Shown here: positions 5,061 through 34,337 of the stretch, one piece after another
Layout of the letters: the number at the start of each line of letters is the position of its first letter
How positions within the stretch are numbered: the stretch's first letter is position 1
IMG/VR virus record: IMGVR_UViG_2541047860_000003
Span: 1 to 34,596 of that record
Strand: one strand, 5' to 3'
From: a virus
Taxonomy: Duplodnaviria > Heunggongvirae > Uroviricota > Caudoviricetes
DNA length: 34,596 nt
Translations under genes and position numbers: made by a program
Notes under the pieces: generated by a model
What the model saw: only the letters and a program-made list of their open reading frames with translations
What the model was told of the DNA's origin: nothing
Databases searched by the model: none

Positions 5061-5423
5061 TTAACGACCTGCTGCGCGGAGTTTTCCGTCAGGTTCACCG
5101 GCAAGAGTCAGCAACTGTCCCTGGTCTTCCTGCAGAATAGTCAGGCGACCACCGCGATTGACATACATCGGCGTTTCGGTGGTGTCTTCTTCGGAAATTT
5201 TCCCGCGGTTAGTCGGGCGAACATATGAGAGTTTGTGTTTGATTTTCACTCGGTTCTCATCAAACGGTTCGATTTCTAGGTTGAGCGAGACCTTACCTTT
5301 GGTTTTCGTGTTCATCACACCGGAAGCGACTTCACTGAGAACTGCGCCGATTTTGGTTTCAAATACGCCGCCGTCCAGCTCCCCGATAAATGCCTGCACA
5401 TCAGTACTGCGTTCGCTAGCCAT
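5061..5423 (-). CDS. YfdP-like small prophage protein
   Basis: Start assigned to internal ATG at 5423 preceded by SD GAGGAG with 7-nt spacer; the longer 226-aa reading extends into a GC-rich hairpin region and has no RBS. Confidence 0.5.
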   Translation of the reverse strand: MASERSTDVQAFIGELDGGVFETKIGAVLSEVASGVMNTKTKGKVSLNLEIEPFDENRVKIKHKLSYVRPTNRGKISEEDTTETPMYVNRGGRLTILQEDQGQLLTLAGEPDGKLRAAGR

Positions 5424-5891
5424 TTTGCTGCTCCTCATCATATCGACCCTGCAAGGTCGGTTAGTTTCTCCACAAAACAGAGAAGAACACCTGCGGTGAC
5501 TGCCGCCCGGATGGATTGGGTTATGAGCCCGTCGTCCGGTGATGCTCTTCTCTGTTTTGTAAAAAGGACGGTACCAGCCGGAAGCAAGGGTACAAGCTGG
5601 TACCGCCAAGACTACACACAGCATAAAGTTGTGGTGCCGGGTGCCTCCCGGTGCCTGGCGAAGGTTGCACACCAGGCGGGTGGGTATCCACAGAAGGTCG
5701 ACTGTCAGCCTCAACCTTAACCCGCGTGCGCTGAGCCGCATTCACCACAACGCTAAGGATTCTCTCTGGTTGAAAATACTTAGCTGTTATGTGCCTGCTT
5801 TTAGCCACATCAGGCGAGGTGGACCTAGTTATTCCCCAACAACAAGGATTCGGTTAATCTGGTTATCCCCAACAACGCAAAAGGAAAAGAA

Positions 5892-10540: not shown

Positions 10541-10926
10541 AGCTGATTCTGCCTTTTCCACCCAGCGTGAACACCTACTGGCGACACCCCAACAAAGGGG
10601 CATTTGCTGGTAAGAGCCTGATAAGCGCGGCGGGGCGAAAATTCCAGAGTGCGGCGTGCACAGCAATAGTTGAGCAGTTACGTCGTCTGCCGAAACCAAC
10701 GTCGGCACCTGCTTCAGTGGAGATCGTGTTGTTTCCTCCGGATAACCGGATCCGCGATCTGGACAACTATAACAAGGCGCTGTTTGACGCCCTGACCCAC
10801 GCGGGTGTGTGGGAAGACGACAGTCAGGTGAAAAGAATGCTGGTGGAGTGGGGACCGGTTATCCCGGAAGGGAAGGTCGAGATCACTATCAGTAAGTACG
10901 AGAAAACGGCGGGTGCAGCCGCCTGA
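10537..10926 (+). CDS. rusA: RusA Holliday junction resolvase
   Basis: LPFPPSVNTYWRH...DLDNYNKALFDALTHAGVWEDDSQV matches RusA catalytic-region hallmarks. Confidence 0.85.
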   Translation: MKLILPFPPSVNTYWRHPNKGAFAGKSLISAAGRKFQSAACTAIVEQLRRLPKPTSAPASVEIVLFPPDNRIRDLDNYNKALFDALTHAGVWEDDSQVKRMLVEWGPVIPEGKVEITISKYEKTAGAAA

Positions 10927-10945
10927 TCAAGAGGAGAAACGAAGT

Positions 10946-11743
10946 ATGAATAATCTGATGGTCATTGATGGTATTGAAGTTCGTCGTGATGCTTTTGGGC
11001 GTTACAGCCTGAACGATCTGCACAGGGCTGCCGGTTCTCTGGATAAGCATAAGCCTGCATTCTGGCTCCGCAATGAGCAAACTGAACGTTTAATAAGCGA
11101 GTTGCAGATTTGCAACTCGGTCAATATAGAGCCAGTTAACGTTATTCGTGGCGGAAATAACCAGGGGACGTATGTCTGCAAAGAACTGGTGTATGCCTAT
11201 GCAATGTGGATCAGCCCGTCATTCCATCTGAAGGTGATCCGTACTTTCGACATGGTAACCAGCGCACCGGAAAAATTATCCGGACAGGCTGCTGACAAGA
11301 TGCAGGCTGGTGTGATTCTGCTGGACTTTATGCGCCGGGAATTAAACCTGTCTAACTCTTCAGTGCTTGGGGCCTGTCAGAAACTCCAGGAGGCTGTTGG
11401 CTTACCGAATCTGGCACCGCGCTATGCCATTGATGCTCCTGCTGACGCGCCTGATGGCTCAAGTCGCCCTACGCTGTCGCTGAGTGCACTGCTGAAACAG
11501 TATGGTATCCGCCTTACGGCTAATCAGGCATATCACCAGATGGCGAAGCTGGGGATCGTCGAACAGCGCGAACGATACAGCCGTACAGCGATTAACAACA
11601 TCAAAAAATTCTGGTCGCTGACGGCGAAAGGCTGCATGTTCGGCAAGAACATCACCAGTCCCGCAAATCCGCGCGAGACGCAGCCGCATTTCTTCGAATC
11701 CCGATTCCCTGAGCTGTTAAAGCTGCTCGATACCGTTCATTGA
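10946..11743 (+). CDS. KilA-N domain antirepressor-like protein
   Basis: N-terminal KilA-N-like region (MVIDGIEVRRDAFGRYSLNDLHRAAG...YVCKELVYAYAMWISPSFHLKV); ATG at 10946 after GAGGAG. Confidence 0.65.
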   Translation: MNNLMVIDGIEVRRDAFGRYSLNDLHRAAGSLDKHKPAFWLRNEQTERLISELQICNSVNIEPVNVIRGGNNQGTYVCKELVYAYAMWISPSFHLKVIRTFDMVTSAPEKLSGQAADKMQAGVILLDFMRRELNLSNSSVLGACQKLQEAVGLPNLAPRYAIDAPADAPDGSSRPTLSLSALLKQYGIRLTANQAYHQMAKLGIVEQRERYSRTAINNIKKFWSLTAKGCMFGKNITSPANPRETQPHFFESRFPELLKLLDTVH

Positions 11744-20569: not shown

Positions 20570-21908
20570 CATAAGCGCTAACTTAAGGGTTGAACCATCT
20601 GAAGAATGCGACGCCTCGGTGCCTCGTTAAGACGATGCCTCGCGTTCTTCAATTGCGTTTTGTAGGCTGTCAGGGATACTGTCCCACGAATGGCCACCTG
20701 TAAGCTCCAGATGACCATTTTTGTTATTCTCCACAACGAGTTAGTTCTTCTTTTCGGATCCGGCACTTCTGGGGGGGAAATCCAGCGATGGCTGGATTAT
20801 GTCGTCAATTAAAAATGCGGCGAGTAGATTAGCAAATATCCACGCTTTCGCGAGTTCAGGTTCCTTTGCACGCAAAGCATCCAGGTGCAGCAAACTTTTG
20901 AGCCGCTTAAAAGCCAGTTCAATTTGCCATCGCAGACGGTAACAATCAGCCACTTGCTCTGCTGAATATTCATCTTCCGGTAATGATGTTAGCAATAGCA
21001 CATGGCCCGCTGCTTCCAGCGTTTCCGCCTGAACTACTCGTCCTTTTCGACGATTCTCGCTGAGCAGTCGGGTTTTACTGATTAATGCTTTTTCGGGAGG
21101 AAGTGATACGGCAATGAGACGTGCCGGAAAGGGAGCTCCGGCTTTTTTATTACCTGAATTGCCTATCATTACAGTGGTTTCACCGTTCTTACCGCAATCC
21201 AGCCCGCGCAGAAAACCCATCATGTCAAAGCGCATTCCTTCTGCAGTTAACCAGCGCAATCCTCGCCAGTGAACCCGGACGATATAATCAGCTTCTCCAA
21301 AAGCAAGTGAGCGGATACATTCGGGACGCGAACCGAATCCCCGGTCAGCAATGCGTATCTCGTCTGCCGTTTGCGCAAATCGGTCCAGCCGTTCAGCGTC
21401 TCTGCTGTCGGTTAGCTCAAAATCAGTGAACTGACAGGTATGAGGATCATATCCCATATGTAGTCGCCATTCAGCGCTGCCGCCCCCGGGCGCACTGATT
21501 GCTGTTCCATCGACAAGACGCAATCTCTTTCCGCTTGTACAACCCGTAACTGCGGCGCGTACAGCAAGTGTTTGTGCGGCAAGTATGCCAAACCAGTCGG
21601 CGGCATTCCGCAGCCGCTTCAGGAGAGCCACGTCAGATAATGTTGCAACGTCATGGAGCTGAGCCCATGCAGTGACTTCACGTAATGACATCCCCCCGGG
21701 GCCGTAAGCCAGCCCCAGACGTAGCAGAGTTGCAGCATCACGAATTTCGCGGCGGCGGGTTAGAGCCCCGGCATTACGTGCCGAAGTATCCAGTTCTTCG
21801 GGCTTACCAATATGGGCCAGAATTGCTGACCAGTTATCGTGAGAGTAATTCATCGGCACGTTAAATCATATCAGGCGTAATACCACAACCCTTAAGTTAG
21901 CGCTTATG
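20570..21908 (-). mobile_element. IS186 (IS4 family), complete copy
   Basis: Perfect 23-bp terminal inverted repeats CATAAGCGCTAACTTAAGGGTTG / CAACCCTTAAGTTAGCGCTTATG; flanked by 10-bp direct duplication GGATATGAAG (20560..20569 and 21909..21918). Confidence 0.9.
20741..21859 (-). CDS. insL: IS186 transposase
   Basis: 372-aa ORF; translation NYSHDNWSAILAHIGKPEELDTSARNAGALTRRREIRD... matches the IS186 transposase as I recall it. Confidence 0.9.
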   Translation of the reverse strand: MPMNYSHDNWSAILAHIGKPEELDTSARNAGALTRRREIRDAATLLRLGLAYGPGGMSLREVTAWAQLHDVATLSDVALLKRLRNAADWFGILAAQTLAVRAAVTGCTSGKRLRLVDGTAISAPGGGSAEWRLHMGYDPHTCQFTDFELTDSRDAERLDRFAQTADEIRIADRGFGSRPECIRSLAFGEADYIVRVHWRGLRWLTAEGMRFDMMGFLRGLDCGKNGETTVMIGNSGNKKAGAPFPARLIAVSLPPEKALISKTRLLSENRRKGRVVQAETLEAAGHVLLLTSLPEDEYSAEQVADCYRLRWQIELAFKRLKSLLHLDALRAKEPELAKAWIFANLLAAFLIDDIIQPSLDFPPRSAGSEKKN

Positions 21909-27644: not shown

Positions 27645-28000
27645 TGGCCCGTATCGGGGGAACCTGTTATTTCAAAATTGACGGTCAACAGCTATCGCTG
27701 ACCGGCGGCATTGAGGTGCCCATGAACAGGACGGTCAATGATGACATCATCGGCCTGGACGGTTCAGTGGACCGCAAGGAAACTCACCGTGCGCCTTATG
27801 TCAAAGGGACTTTCAAGGTGCCGAAGAATTTTCCGGTGAACAAAATCACCTCGTCTGATGAGATGACTATCACTGCCGAGCTGGCGAACGGTCAGGTCTA
27901 TGTACTGTCGTCTGCCTGGCTGCACGGCGAAGCGAACCATAATGCCGAAGAAGGTACGGTTGATCTTGAGTTCCACGGTGAAGAAGGGGATTACCAGTAA
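27644..28000 (+). CDS. Tail tube protein
   Basis: 118 aa directly after the sheath, start overlapping the sheath stop. Confidence 0.7.
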   Translation: MARIGGTCYFKIDGQQLSLTGGIEVPMNRTVNDDIIGLDGSVDRKETHRAPYVKGTFKVPKNFPVNKITSSDEMTITAELANGQVYVLSSAWLHGEANHNAEEGTVDLEFHGEEGDYQ

Positions 28001-28269
28001 TGAAAGAGCTTGAGTTAAAGAAACCGATTACTGCTCATGGCGAGACACTCTCCGTACTGGAGTTTGATGAGCCTACCGGGAAGGATGTCCGCGAGCTGGG
28101 GTATCCCTACCAGATGAATCAGGATGAGTCCGTCAGACTTCTGGCGCATGTGGTGTCGAAATACATTGTGCGGCTGGCGAAAGTGCCGCAAAGCTCTGTC
28201 GACCAGATGTCTCCGGCAGACCTGAATGCAGCGGCGTGGCTTGTGGCTGGTTTTTTCCTCCAGGCCTGA
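28000..28269 (+). CDS. Tail assembly chaperone (G-like)
   Basis: 89 aa after the tube; the slippery heptamer T_TTT_TTC sits in its last codons, allowing a -1 shift into the following frame. Confidence 0.55.
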   Translation: MKELELKKPITAHGETLSVLEFDEPTGKDVRELGYPYQMNQDESVRLLAHVVSKYIVRLAKVPQSSVDQMSPADLNAAAWLVAGFFLQA

Positions 28270-29783
28270 CGGCTGAATACCTCACTGATCGCTTCTTTGA
28301 CTGCGCCAGCTACTGGCGCATTAATCCCTTCGAATTGCTGAATTTGCCGTTCAGTAAAGTTGGAGCGAAAGCGCGGATTGCCAGGGTGCTCGATAAGCAT
28401 GGTCTTGTCGGTGATTATCGCGATGTGACCCGATATAGCATTGCCTCTGGTTATCCTTTCGACGGTGATGAGGTGACCGCCGAAATGGCAGAGTGTGAAA
28501 ACCTGTTTTCTGTGCCGGTTGACGTAATGATCACAAAGGTACAGGAAGATAAAGTCAGTGGCGTAGAGGTCGTAAAGGCGTGGAAATCTCTGCCTACCGC
28601 CGAAAATATCCAATGGGTATTTGAGCGCATCGGAGCCATGCCCGCTCGTAACATGATGTCGGCAAAAATTGAGCTTCTCAGCCTGGACGGCTGCAACTCT
28701 GGTGTTAGCGAGGTATCAGCGACCAGCCAGTTATTGAGCGAGTGCGCTCGCCGTGGAGTTCCCGACAAGAACTACGCAGCACACCTGGAATCAATCGCAG
28801 AACGCAATGCGTTTCACCCCATCAATGAGATTCTCAAATTCCGGCAATGGGATGGCAAAAACCGCGTTGCTGATGTGCTAGGCGCTATCAAGACTGATGA
28901 TGACCCATATTCTCATCAAATCCTGCTGAAATGGCTGGCTGGCGCGATTTGCGCCATTGATAGCGGCAGCGTGGCTATTAAGTTTTGCCCGGTCATTCAT
29001 AGCAAGGCCAACAACTGGTACAAGTCGCAGCTACCGGAGCGCCTGTTTAATCTGGTTGAAGGTGCTTTTGGTGGCGCTATCGGCATCCCGGAGCCATCGA
29101 ACAAAGACGACCTGATGAAATCAATTAGCGCCTGGTGTTATGAATTTGGCGAACTGGCTGGAATGACTAAGCGTGACGCAGAGGCTATCAAAAGCTTTAT
29201 CCCGATGAGTGAGGATATTTTCCGGTTGCCGTATGGCCGGTGTAATCTTTCCAAGCCGCGTCAGACGGTGTACATCGGCACAACTAACCGTGATGACTTC
29301 ATTCATGATGAGACAATCGCTACACGCTTCCCGGTTATTAAGCTCGCCTCACCGATTGACATCGAGCGTATCAATAAAGCACTTGGCTACGAGTTCGACG
29401 GCAACAGGGCCGTACTGACTGACCGCGAACAACTGATCCAATTCTGGCTTGAGGTTCGCCAGATGGTTGCAGACGGCCTTAATTACGTTATTGACGGTGA
29501 GTTGCTGGCTATTACCAGAGGGAAGAACAAAGAGTTCGAGTCGAGAACCAGCTATGACACCACGCTGCTTGATACGCTGGCGATGCACGATGGCCGCACA
29601 TATCAGACCACAACGCAGATATGCAATGAAATCGGCGTGCCGGTTGATAAGCGAGTACATGTGGGCAGGGCTCTCAACAAGCTTTCGGATAATGGTGTTA
29701 TTGAAAAGAAAGTGACAGGTGGAGTGGCTTACTACACCTTCCCCACGCGGGTTAACTATTTACCAACCCGAAATCCCGAATAA
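28236..29783 (+). CDS. VirE-like protein with degenerate P-loop and C-terminal winged helix; N-terminus continuous with the chaperone -1 frame (possible fusion)
   Basis: 515-aa ORF; central region ...KSFIPMSEDIFRLPYGRCNLSKPRQTVYIGTTNRDDFIHDETIATRFPVIKL resembles the VirE / primase C-terminal family, but the Walker A position reads HSKANNWYKS; C-terminal 60 aa are similar to the C-terminus of the 118-aa protein at 30441..30797. Confidence 0.45.
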   Translation: MACGWFFPPGLTAEYLTDRFFDCASYWRINPFELLNLPFSKVGAKARIARVLDKHGLVGDYRDVTRYSIASGYPFDGDEVTAEMAECENLFSVPVDVMITKVQEDKVSGVEVVKAWKSLPTAENIQWVFERIGAMPARNMMSAKIELLSLDGCNSGVSEVSATSQLLSECARRGVPDKNYAAHLESIAERNAFHPINEILKFRQWDGKNRVADVLGAIKTDDDPYSHQILLKWLAGAICAIDSGSVAIKFCPVIHSKANNWYKSQLPERLFNLVEGAFGGAIGIPEPSNKDDLMKSISAWCYEFGELAGMTKRDAEAIKSFIPMSEDIFRLPYGRCNLSKPRQTVYIGTTNRDDFIHDETIATRFPVIKLASPIDIERINKALGYEFDGNRAVLTDREQLIQFWLEVRQMVADGLNYVIDGELLAITRGKNKEFESRTSYDTTLLDTLAMHDGRTYQTTTQICNEIGVPVDKRVHVGRALNKLSDNGVIEKKVTGGVAYYTFPTRVNYLPTRNPE

Positions 29784-29799
29784 CCAGAACACAATCCAA

Positions 29800-29824
29800 C
29801 CCTGCTACGGCAGGGTTTTTTTTG
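29800..29824 (+). terminator. Strong intrinsic terminator
   Basis: CCCTGC-TACG-GCAGGG followed by nine T residues. Confidence 0.75.
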
Positions 29825-29920
29825 CCTCGTGATCGTGACTGCTTAGCCAGAAAAGGTCAAAAGAAAGCCACTGGAAAGAAAGTCAAAACCGGCCCCTGCT
29901 ATCCCGCCGCGCTCAGGTGG

Positions 29921-30265
29921 GGTACTCCACCTACTCCCCCTACTGATGTTACTCCACCTTGTTACTCCACCTGTTTAACTGAATGATATTAAATAAGAAA
30001 AACCAAAAGGTGGAGTAGGTGGGGTAAAAAGCCGCAAAAACTCCAGAGATTTAATCAGCGGTAAAAATACAACCACCTATGGGCTATATACTACTTATCT
30101 AATTAAATAATAATTATATATAAAGTTACTCCACCTACTCCCCCTAAAGAAAATAAAGTTAAATATAAACAATATGTTAGCTCATAAAAGGCATTTAATT
30201 TACCCCCCCTTTTACCCCACCTTTACTCCCCCTATGAAACTTACCCCCCCTGATTTACCCCACCT
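29921..30265. repeat. Iteron array with AT-rich region (putative plasmid-type origin)
   Basis: At least 12 copies of the 10-mer TAC(T/C)CC(A/C)CCT in both orientations (29921..29972 direct, 30007..30025 inverted, 30126..30145, 30198..30265) around an AT-rich stretch at 30060..30180. Confidence 0.6.
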
Positions 30266-30385
30266 GATGCAGGAATCTAGCAGGAAAGTTGATAGAAAAG
30301 GCATTTTGTATTTGCGGAAGTGGTATGTAGACGATCCGCTTTCTTTTCCCAGTGGCTTACTTCCACTATCTCTGCAATTCGCTCG

Positions 30386-30414
30386 CGTAGTCTGATGTTG
30401 GTATAATGAACCAT
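30386..30414 (+). promoter_or_regulatory. Sigma70-type promoter with extended -10 (TGgTATAATGAACC)
   Basis: GTTGGTATAATGAACC about 30 bp upstream of the 118-aa gene; near-identical to GGTGGTATAATGAACC at 31973..31988. Confidence 0.5.
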
Positions 30415-30440
30415 ATAACCAACAATGCAGAGATGCGACG

Positions 30441-30797
30441 ATGACCAATGAAACAAAGGCTTTCACGGTACGAATTCCCGCAGTCGTTTATCAGGCAATT
30501 GCTGAACGGGCAAAAAATGAAGGCCGGTCACTCAGCTACATGGTGAGCAATGCGCTCTGCGCGTTCGCTGGCATTGATGACGCCCAGGATGATTACGAAA
30601 CGCTTTTGCTTGAGGCAGTTAATACCGGGTCAAATATAAGGGCGCAGACAGTGACGGAAATTTGCAGCGTTATCGGTGTGGATGCTGCCAGGCGGATTCA
30701 TGTAGGCAAGGCATTGCGAAAACTGGCAAGTGGCGGAGCGGTAGTCATGCGGAACCGCAGCGGGTGCAGAGTCTATAAATTTCCTTCTAGCGTATAA
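30441..30797 (+). CDS. RHH (CopG-like) N-domain plus winged-helix C-domain regulator
   Basis: N-terminal KAFTVRIPAVVYQAIAERAKNEGRSLSYMVSNALCAF is ribbon-helix-helix-like; C-terminus similar to that of the 515-aa protein. Confidence 0.5.
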   Translation: MTNETKAFTVRIPAVVYQAIAERAKNEGRSLSYMVSNALCAFAGIDDAQDDYETLLLEAVNTGSNIRAQTVTEICSVIGVDAARRIHVGKALRKLASGGAVVMRNRSGCRVYKFPSSV

Positions 30798-31024
30798 TGG
30801 GCAACATGAACAAATTCGACAGAGTGAAACGCCTTGAAGCGTTCAAGCCAAAGCAGCATGAAGCTGTTCTATCAATTCTCCGGGAGCGTGCTGACATGCC
30901 GTCAGGCAATGCCGGGGAATGCGTGTTTGCCATTCTCATGAAGAAATATGCTTCGGCACAGCAAAAGCCCGCAGGTATCCAGGCGTCCGGCGGGGAAAAT
31001 TCTTTTCTTCCAGTGGCTAATTGA
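30797..31024 (+). CDS. Hypothetical 75-aa protein
   Basis: ORF start overlaps the preceding stop (TAATGG); no motif recognised. Confidence 0.3.
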   Translation: MGNMNKFDRVKRLEAFKPKQHEAVLSILRERADMPSGNAGECVFAILMKKYASAQQKPAGIQASGGENSFLPVAN

Positions 31025-31056
31025 CAGAATAACCCAACGGCAAAGTTGAGGCGTGT

Positions 31057-31512
31057 ATGAAAGACAATACCGTAAATGACGCACCTGATAACGAGCAGCC
31101 CGATATCGAACGTGATAAGCGGGGGCGGTTTACTAAGGGGCAATCAGGAAACCCATCAGGGCGAACCAGAAAGGAGCGCCAGTTATTAACAATGATGGGT
31201 GATGATGCTGACAGCGTGGCGCAAATCGTCATTGATGCGGCAAAGGGCGGTGACATGCAGGCTTGCCGCTTGGTACTTGAAAGGGTGCTTCCCGTCCGCA
31301 AGGCCAGATATGAGGCCGTAGAGTTTGAAATTGATGACACCACACTTGCAGGCTCTGCAAAGTCAATTCTTGCAGCTGTAGCAGGTGGAGATCTGCCACC
31401 AGACGTGGGCGCAATGCTTCTCCAATCAGTAGCTCAAACGGCGAAGATTATCGAGATTGACGAACTTGAGCGGCGAATCGCAGCACTGGAGAAAGGCAAT
31501 GAAACTGAATAA
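31057..31512 (+). CDS. DUF5681-like protein
   Basis: N-terminal KRGRFTKGQSGNPSGRTRKER motif recalled for DUF5681-type plasmid/phage proteins. Confidence 0.4.
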   Translation: MKDNTVNDAPDNEQPDIERDKRGRFTKGQSGNPSGRTRKERQLLTMMGDDADSVAQIVIDAAKGGDMQACRLVLERVLPVRKARYEAVEFEIDDTTLAGSAKSILAAVAGGDLPPDVGAMLLQSVAQTAKIIEIDELERRIAALEKGNETE

Positions 31513-31954
31513 ACGGCTTGAAGCTCTGGAGCAGCGTAGGCCCACGAAGAAGGGCGCAGAGGCTCTCACCGATGAAGAGCTGGCCGCAGCTATCGCCAGG
31601 TTTACACCGGAAGAGATCCGCGCAGCAGAACGGGAGTTATTGCTATGGTTAGGTTAACGCGACGCCTTGAGGTTCTGGAGGAGCAGAGACAGCGTCAGCA
31701 ACCGAAGATCGATTTCCCGCTATATACCATCATTGACAAGCCATCTATACAGACACCCCGCAAGCACTCATTTTCCAATCCTCCCGCTTATCTCTTGGTG
31801 AACTCCTGAAACGAAAAAGCCCCCACATTTCTGTAGGGGCCGTTTCGTCAATCTGCGTTTGATGGTCGGAAGGATGGCCGACAACCTAATTATGCACCGG
31901 CCTGTAAAAATGTACCAGCCTTAAATACAGAAAATCGTAAAAACTTAATCACGA

Positions 31955-31990
31955 TTTTCCGTAAATCATTAACGGTGGTATAATGAACCG
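31955..31990 (+). promoter_or_regulatory. Promoter with extended -10 plus palindromic operator
   Basis: ACAGAAAATCGTAAAAACTTAATCACGATTTTCCGT palindrome followed by GGTGGTATAATGAACC, upstream of the 134-aa gene. Confidence 0.45.
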
Positions 31991-32005
31991 TCAATCCTTC
32001 TTTTA

Positions 32006-32410
32006 ATGGTGATAGCGATGAACGAAGTAGATTCAATTCTGGCCGAGCAGAAAAGAGCCGCAGAACAACGCCGCTTGGCTAATGAGAAGAAGCGCCATCC
32101 ATCCGGCCTGTACGATGCGGGTGATGGGTGGTATGTGAAGCAAATCGAAGAGCTTCACTCCCCGCTGGGTCTCAGTAAGGTGGTTCTGGTAAGCCCTGAT
32201 GATGTTTGTGTGAGATATCAGCGCCAATATGGCAAAGCACTCACCACTGACAAATTGAAGGAATGGAGCAGGGACGGGAACTTCCCGTTGCCGCGCTCTA
32301 TTAATGGGGTTATCGGTTGGGAATCGAATGTTGTGACCAATGGCCTGAATGAACTGAGCAAAGCAGCCGGTCGCGGCTTTACCTGTATCACTCGAGGATT
32401 CGCACGATGA
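32006..32410 (+). CDS. Hypothetical 134-aa protein
   Basis: ORF downstream of the promoter/operator; no motif recognised. Confidence 0.35.
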   Translation: MVIAMNEVDSILAEQKRAAEQRRLANEKKRHPSGLYDAGDGWYVKQIEELHSPLGLSKVVLVSPDDVCVRYQRQYGKALTTDKLKEWSRDGNFPLPRSINGVIGWESNVVTNGLNELSKAAGRGFTCITRGFAR

Positions 32411-32613
32411 GCAAAGAATCTGTAATCGCGGCATTGAAAAAAGCGCGTGAAGCGCGTGAAGGCAATATCTTCGGTGGTACTGGGCAGGCCGAATTTAACA
32501 AAGATTTTTATGCTGGCCGCGCCACCAAAACAGATGGTGTCAGTAAGACCGACAGTAACGAGCCGATGAACCAAAAGGCATTTAATGCCCGGTTCTACTC
32601 CGGTAAAGGCTGA
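32407..32613 (+). CDS. Hypothetical 68-aa protein
   Basis: Start overlaps the previous stop (ATGA); Lys/Gly-rich. Confidence 0.3.
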   Translation: MSKESVIAALKKAREAREGNIFGGTGQAEFNKDFYAGRATKTDGVSKTDSNEPMNQKAFNARFYSGKG

Positions 32614-32708
32614 TTATAGGCAATCGGGCATATCGCAATTGCTGCCCGACTGTTTGGATTGTGACTGTTGAGAAATAGACGCAATTCCGCAATTACAGAA
32701 AATCGCAT

Positions 32709-32933
32709 TTACTTATTTCCGTATTTCTCCATTAGTAACTCTCTAACCTCATCGGCAATCTTTGCTCCTCTCTCTGCTGTTTGCATCTTGATGGCACGGT
32801 GCAAAGATTCAGGGATATCAATCGTCAGGCGCTTCATTTTTTCCGTTTCTTCTGGCGCTGTTACGCGGTCACTAATCCAGGCGTCTGCTGATGCTGGCGT
32901 TGGTTTTTTGCCAATTGAAATCTTCTTGCTCAC
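32709..32933 (-). CDS. ParG-like RHH centromere-binding protein
   Basis: 74 aa; GTG start overlapping the parA stop; C-terminal KRLTIDIPESLHRAIKMQTAERGAKIADEVRELL is ribbon-helix-helix-like. Confidence 0.55.
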   Translation of the reverse strand: MSKKISIGKKPTPASADAWISDRVTAPEETEKMKRLTIDIPESLHRAIKMQTAERGAKIADEVRELLMEKYGNK

Positions 32934-33559
32934 TTCATTATCTCCAGCAGTTCATTAATCAGGTTCTCAATCTCTGCAACAGCCTGGCTGTTAGCGTCTA
33001 CCTCATGCAGAGCTTTACCACTCGCCGCAGCCTCTGCGAATATCACTCGCTGGGTTATTGCAGTTTGCAATGTTGGGATGTCATAAGCGGCTAAAGCCTC
33101 GCGAACATCACGCCCAATAGCTGTATTTGCGATTTTACGATTAATCACAAAACATGATTTGATGTTTTCTTTAAATACAGAAGCCTCAGCAATGAGTTTT
33201 ACTATCTCATCGGCGGCCCATATGTCATATGGTGATGGTTGAACCGGTATAAGCACCGCATCGGATGCCATGATTGCAGAACGTGCCAGGTCAGTGACTC
33301 GCGGGGCACTATCAATTACAACATGGTCATAGCCTTTCGCCAGTTCCTGAACCTCTTTATGAATTGTGGCGCGGGGAAGCCCAACGACAGAGAATAATGG
33401 TTCCCCATCTCTCGCCGCCTGCCAATCTAACGCGCTCCCTTGCGGGTCTGCATCGAGCAGCAGCACCCGGCAGCCTCTCCGGGCAAGGCTTGCCGCAACG
33501 TTCACAGAAAGCGTTGTTTTACCCACTCCGCCTTTTTGATTCAGTACGCCAATTATCAT
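32930..33559 (-). CDS. parA: ParA-type partition ATPase (small type Ib)
   Basis: Deviant Walker A MIIGVLNQKGGVGKTT..., LLDADPQGS, 209 aa. Confidence 0.85.
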   Translation of the reverse strand: MIIGVLNQKGGVGKTTLSVNVAASLARRGCRVLLLDADPQGSALDWQAARDGEPLFSVVGLPRATIHKEVQELAKGYDHVVIDSAPRVTDLARSAIMASDAVLIPVQPSPYDIWAADEIVKLIAEASVFKENIKSCFVINRKIANTAIGRDVREALAAYDIPTLQTAITQRVIFAEAAASGKALHEVDANSQAVAEIENLINELLEIMK

Positions 33560-33703
33560 GTCGACCTCTATCCAGTTTTGGCCAGATGGTACAGAAAATC
33601 GTAAAAACTTAAAAGCGTATCTTCTAATTTACAGATGAATAATCCTGTTAAATACACGCGGCAGCCCTCGTTTTTTCGTCCAGTGGCCATATTAGCGGGC
33701 CAT

Positions 33704-33735
33704 TTGACATGGCTTCAAAACGGCTTCAAAATGAT
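33704..33735 (+). promoter_or_regulatory. Sigma70-like promoter with direct-repeat operator
   Basis: TTGACA at 33704..33709, 17-bp spacer containing GGCTTCAAAA twice, then CAAAAT; upstream of the RHH gene. Confidence 0.4.
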
Positions 33736-33756
33736 GCCATAACCATAGGGGGATTT

Positions 33757-33915
33757 ATGCCAACACCAAAACCGAAAACCATCACATTCAGGCTTTCAGA
33801 TGAACTACTGGAAGATCTTAAGCGCCTTGCCGACGATGAAGGACGCTCTATTAATTCGATGCTCACGGAGTTGGTGAAGCGAGCCGCTAAAAAGCAGGAT
33901 GGCGAAAGTAAATGA
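33757..33915 (+). CDS. Small RHH (CopG/Arc-type) DNA-binding protein
   Basis: 52 aa from internal ATG; KTITFRLSDELLEDLKRLADDEGRSINSMLTELV is an RHH signature. Confidence 0.5.
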   Translation: MPTPKPKTITFRLSDELLEDLKRLADDEGRSINSMLTELVKRAAKKQDGESK

Positions 33916-34337
33916 GAAAAACACTCCTGGCATTAATCGTTATCTTGGGGTCAGTTTGGAGATCGGAAATTTCTGTACGTTAAGCGCATTATTTAACCAA
34001 TCTTGGTTCGTAAGGGGTTGATTTTGCGTCAGTGGCTATCGCTTTTAAGTTGTCGCTCTTGCAGTATCGCATTTAGGTTATCCGATTAAGGTCAAACCTC
34101 TGAAAATGCCGTATAGCGCGGGAGTACACCCTATTGCGATAGCGCGATCTGTTCAAAAAACAGGCTTAACGTACAATAATTTCCGATCTCCAAACTCACC
34201 CCTTATTCACGCTGGCCAACCTGTTTCGGGCGGACCAAATGATACGTCAGTGGGAGAGATCTCACTAAAAACTGGGGATAGCGCCTTAAATGGCGAAGAA
34301 ACGGTCTAAATAGGCTGATTCAAGGCATTTACGGGAG

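Follow-up and report, generated by a model that had tools for sequence, protein, structure and literature searches.

The replication modules of SaPIs and PICIs are the described systems closest to the locus analysed here. In SaPIs the primase gene lies upstream of rep and the origin immediately downstream of it. SaPI Rep belongs to the SF3 helicases, loads itself, and recognises short iterons through a C-terminal winged helix; the centre of the origin is AT-rich and is flanked on either side by two or more iterons, which run in opposite directions (PMC9371898). The PICIs of E. coli have the same layout, and in these elements rep together with ori maintains a plasmid; a parallel between P4 and PICI replication has also been pointed out (PMC6092414).

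In this paper we examine a repeat-rich region in a stretch of DNA of 34,596 nucleotides (the window), which is a chromosomal segment of E. coli that begins with a host aldehyde-dehydrogenase-like gene. A sequence-only reading had taken the region for a classic theta-type plasmid origin and had named the proteins encoded on either side as candidates for Rep. On comparative evidence, and with a probability that we put at roughly 0.8, the repeats mark the origin of a replicon of the SaPI/PICI type (primase, helicase-initiator and ori) that is native to a circular, plasmid-like enterobacterial element of ~13.5 kb and would work by a self-loading VapE mechanism, the copy in the window being a relic. 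The features of the SaPI/PICI layout are all found, namely an SF3/VapE initiator, a C-terminal winged helix (in a structural model), an ori 3' of rep, and opposed iterons around an AT core, while the primase gene upstream of rep is found in the native element and not in the window fragment. The locus thus resembles those of SaPI1 Rep1, SaPI5 PriRep and EcCICFT073 in its VapE-family SF3 initiator, in the position of ori 3' of rep and in its opposed short iterons, and the native element adds to the likeness with its upstream primase and with an AlpA/HTH_17-like gene and an integrase nearby. There are also differences. The iterons are 10 nt long, whereas those of SaPIs are 5-6 nt, and their 14 copies form four blocks and not two sets; primase and helicase are encoded by different genes, which two small ORFs separate; in its native state the replicon is carried by a circular plasmid of ~13.5 kb with ParA and not by a chromosomal island; and just past the origin is an extra gene, for a protein that joins a ribbon-helix-helix (RHH) domain to a winged-helix paralogue. 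The window copy, moreover, is truncated. Coordinates of the features are given in Table 1.

Table 1. Features of the origin region and its surroundings, in window coordinates unless another record is named
Feature	Position	Strand	Sequence or remark
Prophage tail assembly chaperone gene	28000-28269		
Chimeric VapE ORF	28236-29783	+	residues 1 to ~36 from the -1 frame of the prophage tail chaperone, the rest VapE-family helicase
Slippery heptamer	28251-28257		T_TTT_TTC
Intrinsic terminator of the helicase gene	29798-29825	+	8-bp stem, then a T run
Outer inverted repeat, left arm	29861-29882		AAGAAAGCCACTGGAAAGAAAG
Iteron block A	29915-29972	- (29915); + (29923, 29932, 29950, 29963)	one inverted and four direct copies
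AT-rich spacer	29973-30007		between convergent blocks A and B
Iteron block B	30008-30027	-	double iteron (30008, 30017), left arm of the 20-nt core inverted repeat
Core spacer	30028-30125		probable unwinding element, by AT content
Iteron block C	30126-30145	+	double iteron (30127, 30136), right arm of the core inverted repeat
Second AT-rich stretch	30146-30200		90% AT at 30160-30179
73-aa ORF	30174-30395		artefact
Iteron block D	30201-30265	+	five direct copies (30201, 30213, 30224, 30242, 30256)
Outer inverted repeat, right arm	30338-30362		GCTTTCTTTTCCCAGTGGCTTACTT
Outer sites bracketing the origin			AAGAAAGCCACTGG
Candidate extended -10 of the 118-aa gene	30399-30407	+	TGgTATAAT, read from the sequence
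Gene of the 118-aa protein	30441-30797	+	predicted N-terminal ribbon-helix-helix fused to a paralogue of the helicase C-terminal winged helix
parA	32930-33559	-	
Iteron array of L003 (E. coli pEC8-4)	5283-5740 of that record		TTACCCCCACAC
Iteron array of L005 (Citrobacter pF2021-2)	10667-10951 of that record		CTAACCC
Iterons of L016 (37-kb phage-like contig)			TACYTCACT

The repeat unit TACYCCMCCT has 15 exact matches in the 34.6-kb window, 14 of them within 29915-30265, while 100 dinucleotide shuffles of the whole window gave a chance expectation of 0.19 and a maximum of 2. At least 12 copies, in four blocks and both orientations, had been claimed from the letters, and the count of 14 exact copies upholds this. 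Because a T stands ahead of 9 of the 14 copies, the full unit is written (T)TACYCCMCCT. Start-to-start spacing is irregular, at 9-18 nt, and three of the 14 copies are inverted. Blocks B and C form a core inverted repeat with arms of 20 nt that are 90% complementary and have 98 nt between them, and the sequence of block C is identical to that of 29923-29942 in block A. The proposal of an AT-rich unwinding core is supported, since DNA between the inverted double iterons is pure A+T at 30100-30119, within an AT-rich segment that spans 30085-30126. Two iteron-like sequences with one mismatch each lie in inverted orientation at 29717-29739 (AGGTGGAGTG...TACTACACCT), within the final 70 coding nucleotides of the helicase gene, and are kept in plasmid copies, including L006; between them is AGTGGCTTACT, which occurs again in the right arm of the outer repeat at 30351-30361. 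The sequence AAAAGGCATTT(A) is present three times in the plasmid-derived segment (30186-30196, 30296-30306 and 32573-32584), and the second of these copies has not been kept in several related plasmids.

An inverted repeat does bracket the region, but it is imperfect. Its left arm is where it had been placed, and the right arm, GCTTTCTTTTCCCAGTGGCTT, is real but lies at 30338-30358 and not at 30328-30348. When aligned without gaps the pair consists of 29861-29877 and 30346-30362, that is, 17 nt with 2 mismatches, and when the non-iteron sequence was shuffled 200 times, a pair as good arose once. Both arms read AAGAAAG-CCAnTGG-AAAGAAAG. The 73-aa ORF had been dismissed as a repeat artefact, and related copies confirm that it is one: its ATG is missing in 8 of 11, a frameshift is present in 7 of 11 and an internal stop in 1 of 11. 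On the other strand an ORF of 84 aa is disrupted in 6 of 10 copies.

An Rfam scan of the region gave a chance-level miRNA match only, so that there is no evidence for a structured RNA. Megablast of the origin DNA against a phage collection gave no match, and the double iteron was not matched in viral contigs. When species-representative genomes were scanned for the exact pattern of the double iteron, 46 single hits were obtained in unrelated taxa, none of them in Enterobacterales; as this number is of the order of a rough chance estimate of ~9, the scan was judged uninformative.

The upstream gene ends 132 nt before the iterons begin. Its 515-aa product, the first of the two earlier Rep candidates, is the one favoured here, as a VapE/SF3 helicase homologous to SaPI1 Rep1. 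The protein matches the Pfam family VapE-like_dom (E 6e-33) and also phage primase/helicase PHROGs, and by phmmer its ATPase core matches PDB 7PDS (E 2.3e-18), which is the SaPI1 Rep1-DNA complex (PMC9371898). PHROG 2249 shows the primase part and the VapE part to be two halves of one phage primase-helicase. An AlphaFold (AF2) model of the native 511-aa VapE protein, built on an alignment of 25 sequences, has a pLDDT of 78, with residues 90-500 confident. At its C-terminus helices 435-446, 455-462 and 466-481 are followed by a hairpin at 486-497 (pLDDT ~85), and in this model the three helices and β-hairpin are a winged-helix pattern, which corresponds to residues ~440-506 of the window ORF. 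When the model was submitted to Foldseek, six 7PDS chains ranked at the top (E 5e-18 to 1e-16, ~480 aligned columns), and the fold alignment spans the whole VapE protein, C-terminal domain included; the next matches were to NrS-1, ASFV, poxvirus and MCM helicases and to SaPI5 PriRep. A search of species-representative genomes with the VapE protein found no relative.

The plasmid ancestry of the region, also proposed from the sequence, is borne out by the discovery of a circular parent of ~13.5 kb. The parent record is the circular 13,291-bp Shigella flexneri plasmid NZ_CP055032, whose homology with the window is confined to 28342-33903, at ~97% identity. The parent element (L001 and L006-L014) is circular and ParA-bearing, and its independent contigs share a single gene order and differ by circular permutation: a tape-measure-like gene (520 aa), a Dit/tail-fibre-like gene, a tyrosine integrase, a Toprim_3 primase, HTH_17 (AlpA-like), a small ORF, VapE, the iterons, the 118-aa gene, DUF5681, parA with a 74-aa gene, an RHH gene, and unknowns. 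The iterons are confined to one locus across a whole 14-kb plasmid copy, and no other replication gene is recognisable on the parent element. No capsid or terminase genes were found on it either, and its gene content suggests a phage satellite in plasmid form or an element that interferes with tails. Filing the element as a PICI was considered and rejected, as the parent is a plasmid with ParA and the chromosomal copies are fragments beside IS elements. In the literature we found no description of the parent element, and nothing specific on VapE with iterons, on the iteron sequence or on plasmid-form satellites with tail genes.

The arrangement of VapE and iterons is seen in other replicons as well. 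In small (10-17 kb) non-mobilizable plasmids of Enterobacter, Citrobacter and E. coli a VapE helicase is the sole evident replication protein, and both of the plasmids of this kind that were examined, L003 and L005, have iteron arrays directly 3' of VapE. PLSDB assigns no replicon type to the three records inspected, and no discussion of these three VapE plasmid records was found in the literature. The VapE proteins of L003, L005 and the phage-like contig L016 are 30-44% identical to that of the window, the iterons directly 3' of their genes are of different sequence (Table 1), and terminator hairpins equivalent to that of the window helicase gene follow VapE in all three. When the four lineages are oriented by VapE, copies with the G-rich strand lie to the left of the AT core and copies with the C-rich strand to the right, so that the "TAC/TAA" heads face the core. 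A further record, L017 (VapE 35% identical), has no repeat array 3' of the gene, and the layout is therefore common but not universal.

The repeats also differ from their surroundings in variability. Among 12 aligned copies of the origin, which are 95-99% identical, 2 of 107 columns vary at the fixed iteron positions (eight per unit), compared with 10 of 28 at the degenerate positions 4 and 7 and 29 of 216 in the spacers (Fisher tests: fixed versus degenerate, 1.7e-6; fixed versus spacer, 4.7e-4). Low variation at the fixed positions is what sequence-specific binding by a protein would predict.

The 118-aa protein encoded just past the origin is related to the end of the helicase. Over its last 67 residues it shares 39% identity with VapE 440-506 (BLASTP, E 2e-14), the similarity stretches to ~92 residues in tblastn, and the putative recognition helix, R-V/I-H-V-G-R/K-A-L-x-K-L, is near-identical in the two proteins. 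The N-terminus gives weak Arc/RHH matches, among them a PHROG labelled as a partition protein. A model of the protein, with two helices followed by three helices and a hairpin, has a pLDDT of 58 (low confidence), which was too poor for a fold search, and the RHH and winged-helix calls draw on weak profile hits, on secondary structure and on the similarity to VapE. No homologues outside this element lineage were found in a word-indexed search of 5.8 billion proteins, and an exhaustive HMMER scan of 1.84 billion representative proteins found no relatives outside it. The protein falls into only three clusters at 90% identity, all on contigs of 12.6-14.0 kb, which come from E. coli, Atlantibacter and metagenomes, and a paralogue of the initiator domain was sought in L003, L005 and L016 and not found. 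A consensus promoter scan in which a -35 element was required returned no -35/-10 promoter; the extended -10 listed in Table 1 is a candidate.

The 118-aa protein is probably a lineage-restricted regulator of origin firing or of copy number. From its domain composition we infer that it binds the iterons of the helicase as a dimer and modulates firing of the origin or copy number, and the outer inverted repeat may be an operator for its RHH domain. A more detailed proposal is tentative, and in our estimate has the odds against it: the RHH module and the duplicated winged helix of the initiator would make the protein a controller of origin occupancy or copy number that competes for the iterons or bridges them, whose RHH domain may anchor it on the AAGAAAG-CCACTGG-AAAGAAAG sites, and that together with ParA would make a stable plasmid of a satellite-type replicon. 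The SaPI replicon reportedly replicates only as an unstable plasmid, and we know of no control by an initiator-domain decoy in this replicon class. The idea that each of the two winged helices reads its own type of iteron, T or C, was rejected, as near-identical copies switch freely between the alternatives at positions 4 and 7.

The RHH N-terminus, with its match to a PHROG labelled as a partition protein, would also fit another function, in which some or all of the repeats (blocks A and D at the least) form the partition centromere for the ParA system, with the 118-aa protein as the centromere binder. Centromere-binding proteins of type Ib are small, of the RHH kind, and act on short-repeat arrays, and no convincing repeat array was found near parA, where a GGCTTCAAAA doublet is the only candidate, so that some of the blocks could have a second role. 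We nevertheless consider this explanation improbable. The parA gene is 2.1 kb off and has its own overlapping 74-aa gene downstream, in the typical position of a centromere-binding partner, and VapE replicons that lack the 118-aa protein (the phage-like contig and other plasmids) still have iterons 3' of VapE. The 118-aa protein, moreover, has at its C-terminus a copy of the initiator domain, which ties the repeats first to replication. The two copies of GGCTTCAAAA are 11 nt apart, at 33711-33731, in the divergent region between parA and a 52-aa RHH gene, and the doublet is a candidate for an operator or for part of the partition site.

A classic theta iteron origin, with the downstream RHH-wHTH protein as Rep and with loading by host DnaA and DnaB, is very unlikely. 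The repeats and the AT-rich stretch do adjoin a small DNA-binding protein with a winged-helix-like C-terminus, and the locus shares with the classic iteron theta plasmids (pSC101, R6K, F, P1, RK2 and pPS10) the placing of initiator-site repeats beside an AT-rich unwinding element, a plasmid carrier and a partition system. The initiator here, however, is by homology a self-loading helicase, and Pfam finds neither Rep_3/RepA nor any other plasmid Rep family in either flanking protein. No DnaA box (TTATCCACA, up to 1 mismatch) is present in 29860-30440, and the repeats are short units of 10 nt, unphased and in both orientations, with 9-18 nt spacing and 3 of 14 inverted, whereas classic iterons of 17-22 bp are direct and in helical phase. 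The 118-aa protein, besides having no detected relatives outside its lineage among the 1.84 billion representative proteins, is missing from the other three VapE lineages in which the iteron layout is retained. This downstream protein, the second of the earlier candidates, is therefore not the initiator; it carries only a copy of the DNA-binding end of the helicase. Of the "classic theta-type plasmid origin" what stands is an iteron-bearing replication origin, and what falls is the classic type, given the lack of a Rep_3-type initiator and of a DnaA box and the short, irregular, bidirectional iterons. It is likewise highly improbable that the array is purely regulatory or recombinational, as an operator for the downstream operon or as attP arm-type sites of the integrase, because, although the element encodes a tyrosine integrase and block D is upstream of the 118-aa gene, the integrase gene lies ~4 kb away, 137 nt separate the end of block D from the candidate -10, the position 3' of VapE is kept in plasmids with serine recombinases only, and inverted double iterons around a pure A+T core are the described layout of SaPI/PICI origins.

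If the region is a helicase-initiator origin of the SaPI/PICI kind, the likely mode is theta replication begun by a self-loading helicase. Hexamers of the VapE SF3 helicase would bind the (T)TACYCCMCCT iterons through the C-terminal winged helix, as the homology with SaPI Rep suggests, and would melt the AT-rich core between blocks B and C. The helicase would then load itself as the replicative helicase, one hexamer per side, the separate Toprim primase of the element would prime synthesis, and host polymerase would finish theta-type replication without DnaA. Blocks A and D would serve as accessory binding arrays, and the 118-aa protein would most likely occupy or bridge the same repeats and in this way regulate firing or copy number.

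Initiators with comparable properties are known from other systems. In satellite phage P4 the alpha protein is a primase-helicase initiator that acts on short direct and inverted repeats, and P4 can live as a plasmid. Alpha, however, is a single fused protein, and P4 uses two cis regions (ori and crr), whereas this plasmid has one repeat locus; the PDB structure of the alpha origin-binding domain has no sequence match to VapE at E up to 1. SV40 large T antigen and papillomavirus E1 are SF3 initiators that assemble on both sides of an AT-rich segment, on short repeats arranged as inverted pairs. Their logic is shared with this locus, but they are remote relatives with a different DNA-binding domain and eukaryotic hosts.

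In the window the plasmid DNA is joined to a prophage whose genes are, in order, integrase, CI-like repressor, lysis, terminase, head, tail sheath, tail tube and tail assembly chaperone. Intact prophages of this kind occur in >1000 E. coli genomes, and homology with them reaches window position 28358. The prophage and plasmid homologies therefore overlap by 17 nt (28342-28358), which points to a microhomology junction. The captured piece of plasmid is 5.56 kb long and holds a truncated VapE, the iterons, the 118-aa gene, the DUF5681 gene, small ORFs, parA with the 74-aa gene, and a small RHH gene. When the window was searched by tblastn with plasmid proteins, the plasmid integrase, Toprim primase, HTH_17 and tail-like genes were found to be absent.

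The window VapE is without its first ~31 residues and from residue 33 on shares 97% identity with P0004, the plasmid protein. Its ORF starts inside the prophage, in the -1 frame of the tail assembly chaperone gene, a canonical slippery heptamer is present upstream of the junction, and phrog_32181, a phage frameshift-extension family, matches residues 6-42 of the ORF. Because of this reading frame, the helicase could be made only as a frameshift fusion from the late operon; the sequence suggests that the programmed frameshift of the phage could give a fusion of chaperone, E' and helicase. As both the primase gene and the native start of the helicase are missing, the window origin is probably a non-autonomous relic. 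It is most likely silent, and we think residual activity of any kind unlikely. In the head-gene region an insertion of ~1.3 kb (20570-21907) with a DDE_Tnp_1 transposase (ORF 20741-21859, - strand) is absent from the otherwise identical prophage of E. coli C10, and since it breaks this region it is further evidence that the prophage is defective.

Among 5426 complete E. coli genomes the fragment is present in 2, at 99.7-99.8% identity. In one it has the same prophage context and in the other its neighbours are truncated caiC and fixA; IS5 then occurs in both. The second copy (L021, NZ_AP027759 3897405-3916065), between truncated caiC and fixA, has VapE cut further, to 432 aa, and here too an alpha/beta hydrolase gene and IS5 come next. 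These contexts suggest that the plasmid fragment travels with IS-mediated rearrangements. Past the end of plasmid homology at 33903 the window has a 53-nt inverted repeat (33947-33999 and 34150-34202; 83% complementary, 150 nt apart), which may be a MITE or an IS remnant.

For annotation, these results mean that the locus is a captured and probably inactive plasmid fragment in a degraded prophage, and not evidence of an autonomous replicon. The comparison decides the question of which protein fires the origin in favour of the upstream VapE helicase. The origin itself is, on this comparison, of a known kind, the SaPI/PICI helicase-initiator type, and comes from a class of small enterobacterial plasmid replicons that we found little described; the helicase-initiator design appears to be in use in a set of such plasmids of 10-17 kb. 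The four lineages provide a rule by which origins of this kind can be found, namely a terminator after VapE and then inverted repeats with their heads facing an AT core. The one distinctive trait of this origin is the decoy-like paralogue of the DNA-binding domain of the initiator, and a small protein of this sort, with its duplicated origin-binding domain, can be tested as a candidate controller of copy number in such replicons.
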